Positions 34,353 to 44,479 of a stretch of 64,000 bases of DNA are shown piece by piece. Location: assembly GCF_044324875.1 (NCBI RefSeq), contig NZ_CP172185.1. The stretch is one strand, 5' to 3'. This DNA comes from Escherichia coli. GTDB taxonomy: Bacteria > Pseudomonadota > Gammaproteobacteria > Enterobacterales > Enterobacteriaceae. Position 1 is the stretch's first letter. Each line of letters opens with the position of its first letter. The notes under the pieces were generated by a model. It saw only the letters and a list, made by a program, of their open reading frames with translations. It made no database searches and was not told the DNA's origin. A program made the translations under genes and the position numbers.

Positions 34353-35173
34353 AGATGAATAAATCCGTCGTAGACATGTACCGCCGGGCCAGTCATATAT
34401 AACGGGTGACCCGGACCTTTCCAGGCGATATCAAGACGACCGCCGGGGAGTTCCACGCGTACTTCTTCGGCCAGCAAACCTTGCTGAATCCCTACCGCCA
34501 CCGCCGCACATGCGCCGCTGCCGCAGGCCTGGGTTTCTCCTGCCCCACGCTCATAAACGCGTAAACGAATATGCTCGCGCTTAACCACTTGCATAAAACC
34601 GATATTGGCGCGCTCCGGAAAACGCTCATGGCTTTCCAGAACAGGACCAAGCGTTTCTACCGCCGCGGTATCGACATCATCGACCTGAATCACGCAGTGC
34701 GGATTTCCCATCGACACCACGCCACATAAGATTGTCTGCTCGGCGGCGCGCATAATATAGGTCTTTTCCGCTTTGTTAGCGCGAAACGGCACAGCGGAAG
34801 GTTCGAAGTTGGGCTCGCCCATGTTTACGCGAACCAGATCATCATCGGTGACGGTCAGAACCATCCGCCCGTTGGCGGTGCTGACGCGGATATCGCGCTT
34901 ATTGGTCAGCCCTTTCAGACGCACAAAACGGGCAAAGCAGCGCGCGCCGTTGCCGCACTGCGCCACTTCACTGCCATCGGCATTGAAAATGCGATAGTGA
35001 AAATCCAGTTCAGGATCATACGGTGGCTCAACCACCAGCAGTTGGTCAAACCCTACCCCCAGGTGCCGATCCGCCAGGCGACGAATCAGCTCCGGTGAAA
35101 AAAAGACATTCTGCGTTACCGCGTCGACGACCATAAAATCGTTGCCAAGGCCATGCATTTTCGAGAACTGCAT
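34349..35173 (-). CDS. dapF: Diaminopimelate epimerase
   Basis: ORF track gives 275 aa; known DapF starts [17 protein letters not shown] (274 aa). Confidence 0.9.
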
Positions 35174-35209
35174 CATTTACTCCAATCACGCGGGTACAGA
35201 AACTGACTT

Positions 35210-35413
35210 TTAGTAATTCACCTGGGATGGACCATCGCCAGTGGCGCGGTCGTTTTTATCCGGCACTGTGGATTGCGTTTGCGTCTCTACCGGTTTGGTC
35301 GGCGGTGGTGCGTTTTTATCTGCAGGCGGGAAATAGAGCGGACCTTTCAGACCGCAGCCCGTCAGGCTGAAGAGAGTAAGTAATACAGTGAGTGCCTTAA
35401 ACACGTTTTTCAT
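35210..35413 (-). CDS. yifL: Small lipoprotein YifL
   Basis: 67-aa ORF with lipobox (MKNVFKALTVLLTLFSLTGC). Confidence 0.8.
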   Translation of the reverse strand: MKNVFKALTVLLTLFSLTGCGLKGPLYFPPADKNAPPPTKPVETQTQSTVPDKNDRATGDGPSQVNY

Positions 35414-35492
35414 TATGGATTGCCTGTAAAGTTCATCGCTTTCTGCTTTCTATCATCGCAGGAGAAGGCGTAAAAGCAAGCGTTTAGCGACT

Positions 35493-35668
35493 CTTTATGA
35501 AGTCTGAAAAGTGAGGAAATGCTGCGAGTATAACGCTTACACGTGGCGATTTATGTTTTGCTGGTAGTTTCGTGATCAACACCTCGTGCCAGGATGGCTT
35601 TATGCACTATCGCAATGTGGTTTGTTTGTTGTCTTGTTCGTTGTTTTTATCGTCGGCATGGGGCTTTT
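35493..35668 (+). repeat. Leader-module repeat copy 1 (5' UTR plus truncated signal-peptide ORF remnant)
   Basis: ctttatgaagtctgaaaagtgaggaaatgctgcgag...tagtttcgtgatcaacacctcgtgccaggatggctttatgcactatcgcaatgtggtttgtttgttgtcttgttcgttgtttttatcgtcggcatgggg is near-identical to the 5' ends of the genes at ~36578 and ~39461, but runs into a stop after ~22 codons (…SSAWGF*). Confidence 0.6.
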
Positions 35669-35761
35669 AAAAGAGTGGCGCACCATGCAATTTCGTTGTC
35701 TGACCTTAGTCGCCAGTGACATACAGCTTTGCCAACCTGGTGATAAGAGGGAAAAAATCTG

Positions 35762-36316
35762 ATGGGGCTATTTACCCAACTGGAAAAATTTGACCAAAAG
35801 CTTACGCGCGGTTATGCCCGCTGGGGGCGCTGGGTATGGCGGACGTTAATTGTCGTTCCAATACTGGTCGTATTGTGGAATATAGGGCAGGCAGTATGGG
35901 GAGGACCAAGAGGTGGAGTGATTCTGGAAATCCACAGTGAAATTGACCGCCCGATACTGGGATTCAGTGTTAACGGCGTGGCGGGCGCGAATGCTTTTGC
36001 GAATGGTGGCGGTTCAATCACCTGTTGCGGTGATGTCAGTGGGGATACGGCAGAGGTTATCTGGACATTAAGTACTACTCGTACACAGTATAATGCTGGA
36101 ATGCGTCTGGAGAAACGCAATATGACGTTACCTCTCCCAAAAAGAGAATGGGGAGAAAATTATCTGCACGTGCATTTTATGCCTGGCGATAAAGTGTTGC
36201 TGGGGTGGAGTAAAGATTCTTTTTCTCCGTATGAAGATCTTCACAACGGGGGGTACAAGACCCGCGTTCGGCAGGATGTGAAAGATAAACTTTATGGCAC
36301 AGGAAAAATGAATTGA
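35762..36316 (+). CDS. Hypothetical membrane-anchored protein (184 aa)
   Basis: ORF with a predicted N-terminal TM/signal-anchor (WVWRTLIVVPILVVLWNIGQAVWG) and a Gly-rich GGGSITCCGD motif; preceded by a plausible RBS (agaggg). Function unknown. Confidence 0.45.
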   Translation: MGLFTQLEKFDQKLTRGYARWGRWVWRTLIVVPILVVLWNIGQAVWGGPRGGVILEIHSEIDRPILGFSVNGVAGANAFANGGGSITCCGDVSGDTAEVIWTLSTTRTQYNAGMRLEKRNMTLPLPKREWGENYLHVHFMPGDKVLLGWSKDSFSPYEDLHNGGYKTRVRQDVKDKLYGTGKMN

Positions 36317-36577
36317 TAGATTTCTATAAAAATCACGTTCGGCAGAAAGCGTAATAATGTGGCGAATGTTAGATACCCGTGGTGGAACCTGGGTACAACT
36401 CGTGAAAGACAATAAAGAAGGCAACGGGGGGCGGAATCCCACCTTGCCTCCCTTCCAGGGGTCAATCCGGAATATTTTTATGCTATTAGCCGTACTATGG
36501 GGCAGTTCCGGGATTGTATTTATATCGTGAATGAAAACATCACCTTTATTCCAGCAACTATCAGAAAATAGCGATGA

Positions 36578-36750
36578 CCTTTATGGATTCTGAAAAGTGA
36601 CGATTTGCTGCGAGAGTTACGCTTACTTGTGAGGATTTATGTTCTGCTGGTAGTTTCGTGATCGGCACCTCACGCCAGGATGGCTTTATGCACTTTCGCA
36701 ATGTGGTTTGTTTGTTGTCTTGTTCGTTGTTCTTATCGCCTGCCTGGGGA
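36578..36750 (+). repeat. Leader-module repeat copy 2 (intact; forms the 5' UTR and signal peptide of the 490-aa gene)
   Basis: cctttatggattctgaaaagtgacgatttgctgcgagagttacgcttacttgtgaggatttatgttctgctggtagtttcgtgatcggcacctcacgccaggatggctttatgcactttcgc...; direct repeat of copy 1. Confidence 0.6.
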
Positions 36751-38130
36751 TGTAAGCTTTCATCTGTGGATCCCAATGAGTATCAGCAACAGGGAAAAGG
36801 CGTGGTGTACCTGCGCCCTAATCAAAACACCAATCTTTCGCTACCGAACGTGAATTACAAGCGCCTGCGTCGGTTGGCGAATTTGTTAATTGACCCAGCG
36901 ACACTGGAAGATTGGGAGGAAATACCGCCGTTAACCGATCTGTCTACTGATTATGATGTGAGGGGCGCAAATGCCTGGTATCCTCATTACTCCTGGCATA
37001 GCGATGGTCGCTATATTATTTACGCTGGCAAGATAGTGCAAAATCCTGCGGGTGCACCGCCGGTTGACGTCACGTCATTCAAGGCTTGGGGCGATTTTGC
37101 CGCTGATAAAAATAGCCTCTATTTCAGAGGCGAACGCACGGATGACAATGGTGGTGACAAGCCTTTAGATAGCAAAACACTGCATCAGATGAATTTACCG
37201 CCGCCATGGGAACCTGACGTCCTCGGGCTGATATTGCGTGATGCTAACTTCCTGTATATCAACGGGCATCGTATTGCTGAGACCAATAGTTTCCGCGTGC
37301 TGGCGCAAAAGTCCTGGGATAAGCACGGAAAATTTTCCATGAAGTTTAGCTGCATTCGCAAACCATTCGGCCCCTGGGATACGCTGGCTCGTACACAGAC
37401 GAAGATTATGCTCAACGGCGAACAACTGGATGCCGACCCGGATACCTTCACCGTTGTGCGCTGGATACCTGAAGCATTAATAAGCTGGCGAGATAAAAAC
37501 GGCTTTCACCGAAAGGTACTGGATCAATATGCCCTGGACAGCAATGAGGAATATAGCTGCGGTAGTTTCAATGTAAAGGAACACCGCGTCACCTGGCGTA
37601 GTAGCTTCCCGGGTAAGGGAGCAGAATGCCAACAAGAAGAGATTCCCGGCCTCGATCCTGAACAGTTTCACCCAATTAGCGATGCTGTCGCGCAATATCA
37701 GGACAAGCTGTACGTCATCGAAACAACGCCATTTGACGAGCTCAAGCTGAATATTGTTACGCTTGATGACCCGAAACTGATTATTAATAAGCGCTTCAAC
37801 GCCGGGAAGCGTCACGGTTACTTGCTCACAAGAAAGGGAGACGAGTTTGGGGATTCTGGTTTACAGGTGTTTGAATCCGCCGGGCCGCTCATTTTATTTG
37901 ATAACCACATCCCCAGCGAACGGGAAGCGCATCAGGTTAGCAGCAACCCTTATATCCAAAAATGGTTAGCCCGCGACGACAAATATGTTTATCGCTTCGA
38001 TGGCATGCAGCTCTGGCGCTATCACACCGCAGATCCCCGAGCCGTGCGCGTCGTGAACGATCAACTCGATGACAAAATTAACGGTGATGGCGAGTTTATA
38101 CCCACTCCGCGCGATGAGGCTAAAAAATGA
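36658..38130 (+). CDS. Secreted repeat protein, paralog A (DKNYY-like motifs; possible lipoprotein)
   Basis: 490-aa ORF; N-terminus M(I/H)...FRNVVCLLSCSLFLSPAWGC looks like a signal peptide ending in Cys. Recurrent motifs KNSLYFRGERTDDNGG, NFLYINGHR, DKLYVIETTPF and DDKYVYRFDG resemble the DKNYY family. Start may be the ATG at ~36688. Confidence 0.6.
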   Translation: MIGTSRQDGFMHFRNVVCLLSCSLFLSPAWGCKLSSVDPNEYQQQGKGVVYLRPNQNTNLSLPNVNYKRLRRLANLLIDPATLEDWEEIPPLTDLSTDYDVRGANAWYPHYSWHSDGRYIIYAGKIVQNPAGAPPVDVTSFKAWGDFAADKNSLYFRGERTDDNGGDKPLDSKTLHQMNLPPPWEPDVLGLILRDANFLYINGHRIAETNSFRVLAQKSWDKHGKFSMKFSCIRKPFGPWDTLARTQTKIMLNGEQLDADPDTFTVVRWIPEALISWRDKNGFHRKVLDQYALDSNEEYSCGSFNVKEHRVTWRSSFPGKGAECQQEEIPGLDPEQFHPISDAVAQYQDKLYVIETTPFDELKLNIVTLDDPKLIINKRFNAGKRHGYLLTRKGDEFGDSGLQVFESAGPLILFDNHIPSEREAHQVSSNPYIQKWLARDDKYVYRFDGMQLWRYHTADPRAVRVVNDQLDDKINGDGEFIPTPRDEAKK

Positions 38131-39437
38131 AAGTGATGAAAAAAAGTATCTCACTGGCGCTCATCCTGTTGGGGTACACGGTGGCAATTCCGGCCGTCCA
38201 GGCTGAAGGGTACGAATACTACTCTAACCAGGGAGCCCTGGTTTACGGTTCAAACTTCGGGGGACAAAAGAAAATCATTGCCAAGTTTACGGGAATTAAC
38301 AGACGCGATTTGTACCCTGTGGAAAATATCTCTGGCGAGCAGGAACGATATATTATCGAAGATGAAGTCACCACAATTAAAGAGGAGTACCACTGGATAA
38401 CGGACGGTCACGTCATTCTCTGGCGAGGGAAAATCGTGAGTAATCCTCCCGGTACGCCAATGGTCGATGTTGCCAGCTTTAAGGCTCTGGGCCGCTTCGC
38501 CGTCGATAAATACAGTCTCTATTTTGACGGTCAGCGCACCGAAAGCAATAGCGGTGCTTCGAAGGTGGACCTGGCAACCCTAAAAGCTATCGAAGATAAC
38601 AGCAGCACGCTGGTTGACCGACATAACCTTTATTTATTGGGACGCAGGCAGGCCAGTAGCGACGATTTCAGCGTACTACAAAGTAAATTGTGGGGGGATA
38701 TCGAGCGGTTCCGCCCACGCAATGAAGGGGCTACCTCCCGCGACCTGCTTATTCGTCATCGCCAGGATGTGTTTCTCAATGGTCAGCGCATTGCAGACGT
38801 TGATGCTGACACCTTTCACATCATTCGATGGATCCCCAATTCATTATTGGTCTACCGCGACAAACATGGTGAGCACCGTTACGCCTATGGCAACCCGGCC
38901 GGAAAAATGGCAACGACCGATGATGCGAATTCGTTTGAAATCGGTGAAAAAACCGTCCGCTGGCGCAGGCAACTCGCGCGGGATGACGCCTGGCCCACGC
39001 AACTCTCGTGGGATGTCATATGGGGGGCCTGGCAGGATATTCCCAATGTTGATCCGGAACAGTTCCATCTGATCACTGACCGCATCGCGCAGTATCAGGA
39101 TCGTCTGTATATCATCAAACTGTCGCCAGTTGGCGAAGACCAGCTTAACGTTATCACCCTGGATACCCCTGATTTAGTGGTTGATCACGTCTTCAATGGT
39201 GGGAAAAAGCACATTTATATTATCAAGGACAGAGCGTGGGTGCAGGATGTTCATGTGATTGCTACCCACGGTCCACTCACCATGGCTGAGAGTTTCGCCT
39301 GGGACGATCGCTATGTATATGCCTGGCGGGGCCAGCGACCTTCCAGAACTGAATCGCCATGTCCGGAGCAAACCGTTGAGCAGGATGATGGCATAGTCAT
39401 TAAGACCGAAGCATCAGAGTGCCACCGCACGCCGTAA
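38127..39437 (+). CDS. Secreted repeat protein, paralog B (DKNYY-like motifs; Sec signal peptide)
   Basis: 436-aa ORF whose ATG overlaps the stop of paralog A (ATGA). Classical signal peptide MKVMKKSISLALILLGYTVAIPAVQA; motifs KYSLYFDGQRTESNSG, HNLYLLGRR, DRLYIIKLSPVGEDQLNVITLD and DDRYVYAWRGQ; C-terminus ...KTEASECHRTP. Confidence 0.6.
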   Translation: MKVMKKSISLALILLGYTVAIPAVQAEGYEYYSNQGALVYGSNFGGQKKIIAKFTGINRRDLYPVENISGEQERYIIEDEVTTIKEEYHWITDGHVILWRGKIVSNPPGTPMVDVASFKALGRFAVDKYSLYFDGQRTESNSGASKVDLATLKAIEDNSSTLVDRHNLYLLGRRQASSDDFSVLQSKLWGDIERFRPRNEGATSRDLLIRHRQDVFLNGQRIADVDADTFHIIRWIPNSLLVYRDKHGEHRYAYGNPAGKMATTDDANSFEIGEKTVRWRRQLARDDAWPTQLSWDVIWGAWQDIPNVDPEQFHLITDRIAQYQDRLYIIKLSPVGEDQLNVITLDTPDLVVDHVFNGGKKHIYIIKDRAWVQDVHVIATHGPLTMAESFAWDDRYVYAWRGQRPSRTESPCPEQTVEQDDGIVIKTEASECHRTP

Positions 39438-39460
39438 AATGGGTCATTATTTTTAACGGG

Positions 39461-39555
39461 TAGTTTCATGATCAACACCTCGCGCCAGGATGGCTTTATG
39501 CACTATCGCAATGTGGTTTGTTTGTTGTCTTGTTCATTGTTTTTATCGTCGGCAT
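39461..39555 (+). repeat. Leader-module repeat copy 3 (partial; 5' end of the 685-aa gene)
   Basis: tagtttcatgatcaacacctcgcgccaggatggctttatgcactatcgcaatgtggtttgtttgttgtcttgttcattgtttttatcgtcggcatgggg matches copies 1 and 2. Confidence 0.6.
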
Positions 39556-41525
39556 GGGGATGTCGGCTTTCCGCGCCTGAACATAATATTTACCAGAAAC
39601 AGGGAAAAGGCGTGGTATACCTGCGCCCTTATAAAGAAACAAATCTTTCTCTTCCTGACGTGAATTACAAAAGTTTGCGCCGTTTACCCAATTTATTAAT
39701 AGACCCGACAACACTAGACGAATGGGATAAAGAACCGCCTCTGACTGATTTGACAACCGACTACCTCTATGAGGGCGCACAGGCCTGGTATCCTCATTAT
39801 TCCTGGCATAGCGATGGTCGCAATATCCTCTACGCGGGTGAAGTTGTGCAAAACCCTCCCGGCACACCTCCCGTCGATGTCGCCTCGTTCAAGGCATGGG
39901 GTGATTTTGCCGCAGATAAACACAGTCTCTATTTTGAAGGCAAGCGCACCGATGACAATGGCGGAGAAAATAGTCTAGATATCAAAACGCTGCATCAGGT
40001 GAAATTCCGTTCCCCCTGGAAACCTGACTTACTGGGGCTGATATTACGTGACGCTAATTTCTTGTATATCAATGGGCATCGCCTCGCTGACCCCGAGAGT
40101 TTCCGTGTGCTGGCGCAAAAGTCCTGGGATCGGCGAGGAAAGTTTTCCGCCGAGTTTAACCCCTGCGTTGCCGTACCATTTGGCCCCTGGGATACGTTAG
40201 CCCGTACACGGACCAAAATCATAATCAATGGCGAACAGCTTACAGCCGACCCAGAGACATTTACTGTCGTGCGCTGGATGCCCAGTTCGTTATTAACCTG
40301 GCGTGATAAAAACGGGCTGCAGCGTAAAGTGCTGAATCAGGGAAATCTGGACAAAGATAGGGCAAATAGCTGTGCAACGTTCAATTTACAGGAACACTTT
40401 GTTTCATGGCGCAAAGGGCCAGAATGTCAGCAAGAAGTCCTACCCGGCCTCGATCCAGAACAATTTCACCCTCTTAGTAATACCGTTGCTCAGTATCAGG
40501 ACAAGCTGTACACCATCAAAAAAACGGAATTTGGCGAAAATAGGCTAGATATCGTCACACTGGATAATCCTGGTTTGGTGATAGATAAACGCTTTAACGC
40601 GGGAAGAACTCACGGCTATTTATTGACCAAATTACCAGCTGATGGTGAAGAAGAAGATGGCCTCCAGGTATTCGAGTCTTCCGGGCCGCTTATCCTGATG
40701 GATTATCGTGTTCCTGACGAGCATGAGGCTCACCTTAGCGATAGCCCCCATTACAAGAAATGGTATGCACACGACGATCGTTATGTTTACGCATTCGATG
40801 GCTCACAGCTTTGGCGCTACCCAACTCCCAATACCAAAGCCGTGCGGGTGAAATGGAAAACCAAAGATTCAGGATATGGCTATTGGGCAAACTACCGTAG
40901 TGGTGAGCTTGACGGCAGACTTCTTGAGGATGGTGCGTTTATTCCAACGGGAATCCCCTATAACTCATCCGTTAACATTGCTCAATATTCTGATGGCGAA
41001 GGCTCTTTTCTCGTCGGCGAAACCGATGTTAGCTGGCGTAAGCTTCGCTCTACAGACCAGCAATGGAGTCAATGGGAGAAACTCCCCGATATTGACCCGA
41101 AAGCATTTCATCCCATCACCGATCGTGTCGCGCAGTACAAAAATCATCTGTACATTGCGAAATTGTCTCCTTTTGGTGAAGACACCCTGGAGATAATAAC
41201 GCTCGACTCTTCTGCACCTTTCCTGAAACAACGAATTAACGCCGGGAAAGGCCATGGTTACTTTATGCGCTCTTCCCGTTTACGCGATGATATTCAAATT
41301 TTTGCTATTGATGGACCATTGAAAACCACCGAACGTTTCGCTTATGACAATCGCTATGTTTATACCTGGATCGGTAGCCAACTTTATCGAACCGCATCGC
41401 CCTGTCCGGCCAGGACACGTAATCTGGATCAGAACATGTTTTCATCCAATGATGACATCATCATCCTGAAGACGGAGGAAGAGTGCCACAAAACACCAGA
41501 CATTGAGCAAACTTTGAAGCCCTGA
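39468..41525 (+). CDS. Secreted repeat protein, paralog C (mosaic: A-like body plus B-like C-terminal module)
   Basis: 685-aa ORF. The first ~440 aa are collinear with paralog A (e.g. YPHYSWHSDGR, FKAWGDFAADK, PWDTLARTRTKI); the last ~230 aa resemble the C-terminal half of paralog B (DRVAQYKNHLYIAKLSPFGEDTLEIITLD, DNRYVYTWIGSQ, ...KTEEECHKTP). Confidence 0.6.
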   Translation: MINTSRQDGFMHYRNVVCLLSCSLFLSSAWGCRLSAPEHNIYQKQGKGVVYLRPYKETNLSLPDVNYKSLRRLPNLLIDPTTLDEWDKEPPLTDLTTDYLYEGAQAWYPHYSWHSDGRNILYAGEVVQNPPGTPPVDVASFKAWGDFAADKHSLYFEGKRTDDNGGENSLDIKTLHQVKFRSPWKPDLLGLILRDANFLYINGHRLADPESFRVLAQKSWDRRGKFSAEFNPCVAVPFGPWDTLARTRTKIIINGEQLTADPETFTVVRWMPSSLLTWRDKNGLQRKVLNQGNLDKDRANSCATFNLQEHFVSWRKGPECQQEVLPGLDPEQFHPLSNTVAQYQDKLYTIKKTEFGENRLDIVTLDNPGLVIDKRFNAGRTHGYLLTKLPADGEEEDGLQVFESSGPLILMDYRVPDEHEAHLSDSPHYKKWYAHDDRYVYAFDGSQLWRYPTPNTKAVRVKWKTKDSGYGYWANYRSGELDGRLLEDGAFIPTGIPYNSSVNIAQYSDGEGSFLVGETDVSWRKLRSTDQQWSQWEKLPDIDPKAFHPITDRVAQYKNHLYIAKLSPFGEDTLEIITLDSSAPFLKQRINAGKGHGYFMRSSRLRDDIQIFAIDGPLKTTERFAYDNRYVYTWIGSQLYRTASPCPARTRNLDQNMFSSNDDIIILKTEEECHKTPDIEQTLKP

Positions 41526-41572
41526 CCCCATGCCGCTATACTGCCGCCATCACTTAAAAACAGGATACAACA

Positions 41573-41893
41573 ATGAACGACAGTGAATTTCATCGCCTGG
41601 CTGATCAACTGTGGCTGACCATTGAAGAGCGTCTGGACGACTGGGATGGCGATAGCGATATCGACTGCGAAATCAACGGCGGTGTACTGACCATTACCTT
41701 TGAAAACGGGAGCAAAATCATTATCAACCGTCAGGAACCGCTGCACCAGGTGTGGCTGGCAACCAAACAGGGCGGCTACCATTTTGATATGAAAGGCGAT
41801 GAGTGGATTTGCGATCGTAGCGGCGAAACCTTCTGGGATTTGCTGGAACAGGCGGCGACGCAGCAGGCGGGTGAAACAGTCAGTTTCCGCTAA
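41573..41893 (+). CDS. cyaY: Frataxin homolog CyaY
   Basis: 106-aa [66 protein letters not shown]...; recognised as CyaY. Confidence 0.9.
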
Positions 41894-41899
41894 GATTGC

Positions 41900-41927
41900 A
41901 TGCCGGATAAGCCTCGCTTTCCGGCAC
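41900..41927. repeat. REP-like palindrome / bidirectional terminator between cyaY and cyaA
   Basis: tgccggataagcctcgctttccggca inverted repeat between convergent genes. Confidence 0.35.
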
Positions 41928-41932
41928 GCTCA

Positions 41933-44479
41933 TCACGAAAAATACTGCTGTAATAGCGGCGTGTCGTGATCCTGATTGGCAGGCGGCATGTTGCCGATAG
42001 ATTTGGTGCGGAACGGAATCACCTGTTCACGACCATCAACCTTCACAATCTGATAGAACTGCGGCAGGTTGAAGTTGATGAAGCTTGAGCCGTAGGTAAA
42101 ACGGTCGTGCGATGACGAGTAGAAGCGACTGACGTCACGCACCAGCTCCTCTTTGCTGCCTTCGCAGTGGTGATACACCTCAACCCGGTTGCTTTCGTCG
42201 AGAATGTAGATATTAAAGCCATTCTCGTCTTGCGTTTCTTCGAAAAAGAACTGGATGATCCCTTCGCTGGCAAAGCCGTCCACCACCGCCGGTAATTTGA
42301 CGTGATTGGTTTCAACCTGCACTGACAGGCCGTGCAGTTTGTTATGCGAAATAGCGCCATAAAACTCGATGGCATTTTCTAGTTTCTGTACCGATACATT
42401 CAGGCGTTCGAAGAATAAGCCCCAGGTTTGACCAGAAACGCGCAGCGCCTTGAAGCGCCCGGTTTCCTGGCGGGTGCTGGAAAGACGCAGTTCAATGCAC
42501 TCAGAAACCAGTTGCTGTACACGAGTACGGATTAATCCGCGCAGATGCTGGCTGTAGCAGAAGACTTCCACGCTATCTGGCGGTGCGGCGTCCTGATGCA
42601 TTTTGCCGAGAATAGTTTTCAGGGCTTCGATCATCGACTGCTCGCCGTTGAAGTGCAGCGTACGCACTTCGTTCCACGAGTTGCGGTACAGCAGGTCAAC
42701 GCTACCTACCAGGCAATTTTGATTCTCGCCAAAGCTGAAGACATCCAGCTTACGGAAATCAAAATGCACCACCTGATTGCGGAACGCAGCTGTCGGGTCA
42801 TATTCCAGGTTAACGATAATCGCCAGATGGCGGATCTCACACGGGCTGTAGAGCGCCTTCGGTGTCGGTGCAGGTAAGCGCAGCGGGAAATGGTGCGACA
42901 CGTCGGCGACCATCTCCTGCAACTTAGGCAAATCGACAATGCCGTTACCTTTAATATACAAACGGGTGCGCGAGGTCAGCAGGCCGTTAAACCACGCCCA
43001 GGCCACTAGCTTATTAAGATAACGGTTATATTCCAGCGGCTGATGGCTGATGATCGACTCAATATTTGGCGCGCGGTTATACAGATACCAACCTGAACGG
43101 TTAGCCCGGCCCGGCGGCACATAAATAAAGGTCAGATTCGGTTCCGAGAGATCGGGCGAAATCTGCGGGTTTACCAGCGTCACTTTACCTGGCAATGCTT
43201 CAAACGCGGCATACAGTTTACGCGTCAGTACGCCGATATCCTGCGGACTGGCGGAGACGCTAAGGTTATTGCGACGCGCAAAGCGGATCAGATTACGGTA
43301 GCTCTGCATCATTGCGTCGAGCAGCTCGTTGTGCGCCTCACGCACCTGATCAATCTTCCAGTTAGCGCGGTTATCGAGCATTGCCAGACGAGCATCGTCC
43401 CATTCCCACTCTTTCACTAACTGGGTTAGCACTTCACGACGCCAGCCTACGCAAGCGCGTTCACGGCTGAGTTTTTCGCACACTTTTAAATAGAAGCAGC
43501 GGCGTACTAAATCCAGACGGGTGAAATCTTCAATCGCCGTCAGGTACTCAGTAACACGCTCCAGCATCATGCAGTAAGGATCGAGGCCAAACGATACAAT
43601 CTCGCCGTCGTGCAAACGCTGTTTGATATCTTTCGCCAGCAGTCGTGGGTTGGGGTATTCCCAGGAATAGGCTTCCAGTAGCAGTGTTTTCAGCACCGCT
43701 TTGTATGGGGAATCGATACTCTTATAGAGCTGCCAAAGGCTGGCACCAAAGTACTCTTCGGCAGAAAGTGAGCTTAAGCCGCCGAGATCCAGCCATTCAT
43801 TTGGCGTCAGCACGCCCTGCGCGTAAAGCGTCATCACATAGTCATCGTAATGCTCTTCTTCGTCGCACGGCACCATATTCCACAGAATACGCTTACCGGC
43901 GAGACGCACGGCGGTACGATAAAATTCGTCAAGCAGCAGTATATGCTGGGTGGAGCCACAATCTTCGCCCCCCAGGCTGCCGCTTTCATTATGACGGAAG
44001 CGATTTTCATCAATCAGGAAGAAGCTAACTTCCACGCCCAGCGAGGCGGCCCAGCTTTCCAGCAGGCTGCATTTACGTTGTAGTAACTGGCGCTCTTCGC
44101 TATCAAGCCAGGATTGATGACAGACCCAGATATCCAAGTCAGAGGAACAACTTTGCCCTACGGACGAGGTGCTGCCCATGGTGTATACACCAGTAATTGG
44201 AAGCTCACCTTTCGGCGGGTCCTGTACTGACATTCCACGATACAGTTCAAGCTCGTTCAGGTAGTGGCGTTGAGTTTCATCAGGCGTGTAAAGGCAAATG
44301 CCTTTGGGAACGTTACCATCAAGGTAACCCGGCATTAGCGGATGGTGATAGTGCAACAATGTCGGCAGTAGACTGTAGACCTGTTGGAATGCAGGCCCCA
44401 TAGCAGCAAGCGCGCGATCCACACGCAATTGATTTATGGCATCCAGTCTCTGTTTCAGAGTCTCAATATAGAGGTACAA
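41933..44479 (-). CDS. cyaA: Adenylate cyclase (class I)
   Basis: 848-aa ORF whose first codon is TTG (revcomp of caa at 44477-44479), then [16 protein letters not shown]..., consistent with the known UUG start of E. coli cyaA. Confidence 0.95.

Follow-up and report, generated by a model that had tools for sequence, protein, structure and literature searches.

The described systems that come closest to the genes lying between lptM (yifL) and cyaY in the window (the whole 64,000-nucleotide stretch of Escherichia coli DNA analysed here, from contig NZ_CP172185.1) are the Pfam family DKNYY (PF13644), the Tli1/DUF3304 proteins, orphan immunity arrays such as the Bacteroidales AID systems, and beta-propeller periplasmic lipoproteins of the BamB-like kind. 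The interval holds three tandem genes for exported proteins, named A, B and C below, preceded by a gene of the DUF3304 family. DUF3304 has been tied to Tle1 immunity in the literature (PMC13133936; PMC12469244). E. coli is known to carry orphan immunity genes, and orphan arrays are an established concept (PMC6730261; PMC12469244 for arrays). Our literature search returned no paper on the function of DKNYY proteins or of the K-12 open reading frame (ORF) yzcX.

The locus resembles the DKNYY family in the match of B to the family model, in the matches of its relatives, and in a repeat unit that runs along the whole length of the proteins; it differs in the pairing of a lipoprotein with a soluble protein and in the fused form represented by C, an arrangement found in no paper that we searched. 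With orphan immunity arrays it shares an effector-less gene of an immunity family in a variable hot spot, beside tandem exported paralogs. It differs from them in that a single gene is of a known immunity family, the cluster has neither recombinase nor mobile-element genes, and the DKNYY-like genes stand beside an effector in none of the contexts examined. Beta-propeller lipoproteins were considered as a further close system; no strong structural match was found to closed beta-propellers, a fold that the original prediction had raised as a question.

From these comparisons and the evidence below, we give about even chances to the reading that the cluster represents one haplotype of an enterobacterial locus, both old and unstable, which encodes a two-part envelope module composed of a lipoprotein (A-type) and a soluble protein (B-type). 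The region is 99.9% identical to that of E. coli strain 042. In the strain under study the module would occur twice, as the separate genes A and B and in the fused C-type form, with an orphan Tli1-type gene inserted in front.

Mosaic structure of A, B and C

The original prediction listed three consecutive ORFs, at 36658..38130 (490 residues, from a GTG), 38127..39437 (436 residues) and 39468..41525 (685 residues, from an ATG), and took them for tandem mosaic paralogs, C being an A-type body with a B-type tail; both the ORFs and the mosaic relationship (alignments with E = 0, 1e-64 and 2e-43) hold. The internal ATGs at 36688 (A) and 39498 (C) are likelier starts, since RefSeq uses them in strain 042 and an AGGA lies 7 nt 5' of each; gene A (36688..38130, plus strand) would then encode a putative DKNYY-like lipoprotein of 480 residues and gene C (39498-41525, plus strand) a protein of 675 residues. 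Gene B (38127..39437, plus strand) encodes the putatively soluble periplasmic DKNYY protein of 436 residues. A GAGG precedes its start, and the stop of A and the start of B overlap in an ATGA at 38127-38130, as the prediction had noted, through which B is probably translationally coupled to A.

Over 500 columns A shares 66% identity with C (E = 0), a match that spans all of A; A and B share 36% identity over 352 columns (1e-64) and B and the body of C 35% (1e-64). The C-terminal part of C (508-677) is 42% identical to residues 264-436 of B (2e-43) and its segment 512-652 is 38% identical to residues 302-467 of A (6e-25), so that the C-terminal module recurs in the final 178 or so residues of C. 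C thus consists of an N-domain, a C-module and then a B-type C-module, and has the Cys-containing tail KTE.ECH(R/K)TP in common with B. Its A-like body (residues 1-494, 39498..40979, plus strand) carries a putative lipoprotein signal peptide and is 79% identical to A2, which belongs to the two-gene haplotype found in other E. coli; its extra B-type module (residues 498-675, 40989..41525, plus strand) is 49% identical to the C-terminus of B2. All motifs quoted in the prediction occur in the translations: NSLYFRGERTDDNGG, NFLYINGHR, DKLYVI/DRLYII, DDKYVY/DDRYVY/DNRYVY, and the tail, which reads KTEASECHRTP in B and KTEEECHKTP in C, each tail having paired Cys residues. The invariant positions across the family are repeat-type Y, G, F, D and W residues; none of them is of catalytic type, and no other domain was found in A, B or C.

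A recent local fusion was tried as an origin for C and rejected, since the 670-residue Salmonella orthologue has the same junction between A-body and B-module. Identity to C-type proteins over the full length is 68% in Salmonella (in one high-scoring segment pair), 86% in E. albertii and 92% in Pseudocitrobacter. The full-length Salmonella match implies that the fused architecture predates the species, contrary to the view of C as a recent local mosaic.

Membership of the DKNYY family

The likeness to DKNYY, for which the prediction had given the correct accession, PF13644, holds for B and fails for A and C by themselves. B matches the Pfam hidden Markov model (HMM) at E = 1.4e-5 over residues 113-247, while A (E = 5.9/7.3) and C (E = 2.2) fall below the Pfam threshold and are tied to the family transitively only, through their 1e-64 similarity to B. 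The same HMM finds 14 of the 33 close relatives at E <= 0.001 (best 4.5e-22) and is significant for half of the 16 distant ones (best 6.5e-25), among which P0072 shows five significant stretches between residues 103 and 724. In a relative of 744 residues DKNYY repeats cover nearly the entire protein, with no other domain. The repeat unit D-x-x-x-h-Y-h-x-G ... D-x-x-(S/T)-F can be followed along the full length of the proteins, and the C-terminal module is hardly detected by the HMM. In RefSeq, B and several relatives already carry the DKNYY label; others are listed there or in UniProt as "lipoprotein" or "hypothetical".

The AlphaFold (AF2) model of B (mean predicted local distance difference test, pLDDT, 84.8; predicted template modelling score, pTM, 0.77) is all-beta, in units of three to four strands, and structural resemblance to other DKNYY proteins was found. 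A sequence profile search of the PDB gave no meaningful match, and no solved structural relative was found; Foldseek against AFDB50 returned unannotated family members only, and NCBIfam and PADLOC scans of A, B and C gave no hits. At the family level, A, B and C appear to form a small, divergent enterobacterial branch of DKNYY: at 50% identity it makes up only 65 clusters in a set of 1.84 billion representatives, and the named source organisms of the members encountered are all Enterobacterales, bar one likely contaminant.

Export signals and proposed mode of action

The N-terminus of B reads MKVMKK, then SISLALILLGYTVAIPAV, then A-V-Q-A|E (AVQA|EGY). By inspection this is a Sec signal with n-, h- and c-regions and an AxA site for signal peptidase I, and the B-type homologues show the same pattern. 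A and C begin with MH(F/Y)RNVVCLLSCSLFLS(P/S)AWG|C, again read by eye, in which Cys22 of A is the +1 residue. This Cys is kept in every A-type or C-type homologue examined. The local lipobox is A-W-G-C, with an atypical W at -2; canonical lipoboxes (ALAC, STAC, AQAC, SLAC) occur in the relatives from Klebsiella, Leminorella, Limnobaculum, Budvicia, E. whittamii and Pseudocitrobacter, several relatives bearing the UniProt name "Lipoprotein". We read A and C as probable lipoproteins and B as a probable Sec-secreted soluble protein. As the Cys is followed by K, R or S, and in no case by D, the Lol "+2 rule" suggests that A and C are anchored at the inner (periplasmic) face of the outer membrane. 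The claim of surface or secreted proteins thus stands as to export and is narrowed as to place, to putative lipoproteins A and C and a putatively soluble periplasmic B.

On the proposed mechanism, both proteins of the module would be built wholly of DKNYY-type beta-hairpin repeats, with B free in the periplasm and A and C tethered to the outer membrane on its periplasmic side. In view of the absence of catalytic-type invariant residues and of any other domain, all three would be non-enzymatic beta-repeat binding proteins. A and B would be co-produced by way of translational coupling and probably act as a heteromer, of which the C-type would be the covalent version. A model of A and B joined by a linker (10-sequence alignment) has a pTM of 0.62 over 899 residues and a pLDDT of 72; this pTM is above the value of about 0.43 that we roughly estimate for two unrelated halves, and hints at a defined packing arrangement. 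The ligand may be something fast-changing, or something needed in certain niches only.

The lptM-cyaY site in other strains and genera

Between lptM and cyaY other E. coli strains carry a pair of 492 and 441 residues, with or without the DUF3304 gene, and E. coli SE11 carries the DUF3304 gene and two complete pairs (A-B then A2-B2). Salmonella has the 670-residue C-type gene at this site, and Klebsiella spallanzanii (region L009, 8509-20772) four paralogs of 495, 425, 439 and 463 residues. Relatives are likewise found there in Citrobacter, Pseudocitrobacter, E. albertii, Phytobacter and Atlantibacter. In K-12 these genes are missing, as the original prediction had supposed; its interval is a 462-bp gap with a remnant (MG1655, region L008, 3561-4022), which aligns with the leader and some 190 nt from the 5' end of an A/C-type gene, including a degenerate signal-peptide start, followed by the last 70 nt or so of C. 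On this alignment, which corresponds to 35414-35638, 36579-36844 and 41454-41572 of the window, the gap is a deletion scar. The K-12 ORF yzcX (b3808) covers the scar and cyaY on the opposite strand.

A recently acquired island was also considered and rejected, the site being occupied across genera and marked by a scar in K-12; together these indicate that the locus is old and has repeatedly been lost. The description of the genes as an accessory cluster is therefore right in that they are variable and missing in K-12, and wrong in so far as it implies a simple insertion, the same site being used in seven genera.

The pairing of a lipoprotein with a soluble protein recurs outside this site. In E. 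coli, Citrobacter and Klebsiella the soluble partner stands beside the lipoprotein between lptM and cyaY, 3-5 nt apart or overlapping, and in Leminorella a pair with the same spacing lies between hda and arsC. The reversed order, soluble then lipoprotein and some 25-30 nt apart, is found between cycA and ytfE in E. whittamii (region L035, 6154-9215) and, in Pseudocitrobacter (region L032, 6423-9098), in the gap that separates an MFS transporter gene from osmF. Neither T6SS (type VI secretion system), toxin nor mobility genes were found near the pairs at hda-arsC, cycA-ytfE and MFS/osmF. By its recurrence the pair appears to be a self-contained unit. These reversed pairs of E. whittamii and Pseudocitrobacter, which occupy housekeeping gaps, make up with copies in E. 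albertii (regions L031 and L037) a second family, 33-38% identical to A and B. The contexts of the distant relatives P0059, P0064 and P0072 were uninformative, being short contigs or housekeeping neighbours.

Some further observations concern the site itself. In K. spallanzanii the paralogs are followed by a GntR/aminotransferase regulator, an amidohydrolase and two MFS transporters; this unrelated cargo marks the lptM-cyaY interval as a general insertion hot spot. The C-type gene of Pseudocitrobacter vendiensis (region L027, 7701-9725) encodes a protein 91.6% identical to C (39498-41525), against only 68% for that of Salmonella, yet its lptM is only 70% identical, which suggests a recent transfer of the C-type allele between genera (E. 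coli 042/Pseudocitrobacter). Salmonella enterica (region L006, 11992-12381) has a gene for a predicted multi-pass membrane protein of 129 residues with a weak DUF3021 hit, which overlaps the 3' end of the 670-residue gene and is without counterpart in the E. coli window. A 4-kb contig (L024) labelled as a metagenome-assembled genome of Collinsella sp. shows the E. coli DUF3304-A2-B2 arrangement, with a DUF3304 gene 98% identical, and is almost certainly an E. coli contamination of the bin.

Frequency and selection

The frequency of the locus was surveyed in 5426 complete E. coli genomes, with copies of at least 80% query coverage counted as near-complete. The exact A-B-C form is near-complete in 29 genomes; the best match to the A-B-C query has 95-99% identity in 95 genomes, of which the ones listed are of the SE11 type (A-B then A2-B2). 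The two-gene A2-B2 unit is near-complete in 1395 genomes and the orphan DUF3304 gene in 1157. Most of the remaining genomes have only a K-12-like scar of about 370 bp. The cluster is thus neither ubiquitous in E. coli nor described functionally in any paper found.

Pairwise Nei-Gojobori ratios of nonsynonymous to synonymous divergence (dN/dS) of A/B/C-type alleles range from 0.08 to 0.39, and that of the DUF3304 gene is 0.19; between E. coli and Salmonella the neighbours dapF and cyaY have ratios of 0.02 and 0.05. The ratios of 0.08-0.39 imply that the genes are maintained where intact. In the same species comparison dN is 0.22 for the C-type gene versus 0.024 for dapF and 0.039 for cyaY, and A and A2 are only 66% identical in amino-acid sequence whereas the flanks are 98% identical at the nucleotide level. 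Intact A/B/C-type genes appear to be kept by purifying but relaxed selection, evolving about 6 to 9 times faster than their neighbours. "Diversifying", the term of the original prediction, is not borne out: the ratios are those of purifying selection, relaxed and fast, and they do not show global positive selection.

Weighing of alternative explanations

Several points count against the envelope module as we propose it. The lipobox of A and C is non-canonical and was assigned by eye. Some three in four complete E. coli genomes are without a near-complete copy of any variant searched, so that the function of the module must be dispensable. Single lipoprotein genes without a soluble partner occur in Atlantibacter, Limnobaculum and Budvicia, and the partner is therefore not obligatory. 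The heteromer is argued from gene order, the fused architecture and one linker-fused model, itself built on a shallow alignment (10 sequences) and with its five versions spread from 59 to 72 in pLDDT. The missing catalytic motif is negative evidence only, and the literature searched holds no experiment or paper on the function of A, B or C.

The island might instead be a periplasmic defence array whose DKNYY-like proteins bind and neutralise toxins acting in the periplasm (T6SS effectors, colicin-like toxins) or phage proteins. Like the DUF3304 gene, a bona fide member of an immunity family, they point to the same compartment and run in the same orientation, and tandem arrays, deep allelic divergence, fast evolution, frequent loss and apparent transfer between genera would fit an antagonistic interface, for which the orphan immunity arrays mentioned above offer a precedent. 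We nevertheless hold this to be rather unlikely: in about 12 distinct contexts (a limited sample) no family member adjoins an effector, VgrG, adaptor or toxin gene, PADLOC does not recognise A, B or C, the DUF3304 gene is a separable insertion missing from many haplotypes that bear the pair, and dN/dS is below 1 overall. Proteins of 430-675 residues are also large for immunity proteins. The wider proposal, that DKNYY-like pairs are an unrecognised class of periplasmic defence proteins and the lptM-cyaY interval, which has taken up an orphan Tli1 gene as well, an interbacterial defence hot spot across the Enterobacteriaceae, seems to us slightly less probable still. Allelic polymorphism and copy-number variation in exported repeat proteins could also arise from immune or niche selection on surface-exposed or released factors (adhesins or antigens) that contact host or environment, and DKNYY proteins are common in host-associated bacteria. 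Exposure is not readable from sequence, and the locus has no surface-export machinery, autotransporter or usher genes; B has a Sec signal only, and the carriers (enteroaggregative 042, commensal SE11, animal and wastewater isolates) follow no pathotype pattern, all of which makes this explanation improbable in our view.

Decay of the locus is also visible, and A, B and C could be functionless relics heading for loss. Most E. coli genomes retain the scar only, many Shigella, Salmonella and E. coli fragments are found in the AlphaFold database and UniProt, E. coli strain 33-6 (region L021, 3264-8285) has a frameshifted B and an IS3-family element between lptM and the DUF3304 gene, the C-type gene of Phytobacter is shortened (590 residues), and Kosakonia has a short remnant. 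Set against this are the dN/dS values of intact alleles, the persistence across genera of long ORFs (up to 675 residues) despite saturated synonymous divergence, and the conservation of signal peptides, Cys pairs and translational coupling, and we hold it to be unlikely that the genes are relics. The envelope module remains the reading that we prefer, at the even chances given at the outset.

The orphan DUF3304 gene

According to the ORF list and the RefSeq annotation the lptM-cyaY interval has four plus-strand genes and not three; the original prediction had missed a gene of 184 residues at 35762-36316, together with a triplicated leader. RefSeq names the product a DUF3304 domain-containing protein. 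It matches Pfam DUF3304 weakly, at E = 5.8e-4, over nearly the full model (positions 6-95 of 97), and scores 19.4 bits against NCBIfam Tli1a, for which the cut-off is 110, so that it does not belong to that Pseudomonas-type equivalog. In Enterobacter (region L016) and Erwiniaceae (region L018), relatives with 56-61% identity are encoded 3' of VgrG, flanked by a DUF4123 adaptor and a Tle1-like phospholipase, and E. coli AZ162 (region L039) has the same VgrG-DUF4123-DUF3304-Tle1 module. The window gene resembles such Tli1/DUF3304 proteins in its domain, its similar length, its N-terminal membrane anchor, a CC motif and its 67% identity to the Tle1-linked copy of AZ162. It differs from them in having no adjacent effector, in its housekeeping intergenic site and in a score far below the Tli1a cut-off; moreover, the Tli1 proteins of P. 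aeruginosa and enteroaggregative E. coli are reported to have a lipoprotein signal, whereas its N-terminus is of the membrane-anchor type. Beside the gene we found no Tle1 or DUF4123 remnant, and no effector, VgrG or adaptor nearby; on this ground it appears to be an orphan Tli1-type T6SS immunity-like gene. Its absence from many haplotypes that retain an A/B-type pair makes it a separable insertion. E. coli IH5 (region L040, NZ_CP168949.1, 5017828-5030023) has a 195-nt match to the sequence upstream of the DUF3304 gene, amid a patchwork of partial unrelated genes that looks like an assembly artefact.

Repeated leader and flanking features

The interval is bounded by lptM on the left (minus strand, ending at 35413) and by cyaY on the right (41573-41893). 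Within it a direct repeat family of 171 nt, consisting of a leader and signal-peptide coding sequence, is found at 35493-35663, 36579-36749 and 39389-39559, the leader match of the third copy being partial, from 39447. Leader copy 1 continues into a truncated A-type gene start (35493..35670, plus strand), identified by the repeat search and by comparison with the aligned K-12 scar and two-gene haplotype. At its end an ORF of 22 codons (35602-35670, plus strand), reading MHYRNVVCLLSCSLFLSSAWGF*, is the truncated A-type start, a signal-peptide remnant. Leader copy 2 (36579..36687, plus strand) forms the 5' untranslated region of A and holds its Shine-Dalgarno sequence AGGA, and the partial copy 3 (39447..39497, plus strand) lies 5' of gene C. 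The DUF3304 gene stands exactly between leader copies 1 and 2, the segment by which haplotypes that carry the gene differ from those that do not. The simplest route by which the array would change in size is unequal recombination between the repeated leader/signal-peptide segments.

The G+C content is 46-50% within the cluster and 54-59% in the left-hand genes. An Rfam scan of 35000-42000 found no RNA family, and a promoter/terminator scan gave no more sites than shuffled sequence.

Significance of the locus

The sequences themselves were already in RefSeq and UniProt, and an orphan immunity gene is ordinary; the locus adds a new branch, of interest for its anatomy, to the known but uncharacterised DKNYY family, and is not a new kind of system. 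A polymorphic E. coli/Salmonella locus between two well-studied genes, invisible in K-12, thereby gains a name and an anatomy. Roughly one complete E. coli genome in four has this fast-evolving envelope protein module, and about one in five the orphan Tle1-immunity gene. If the proteins do bind toxins, phage or host factors, their alleles would help to explain differences between strains in competition and colonisation; otherwise, the locus illustrates how a repeated leader drives an array to expand, fuse and decay.

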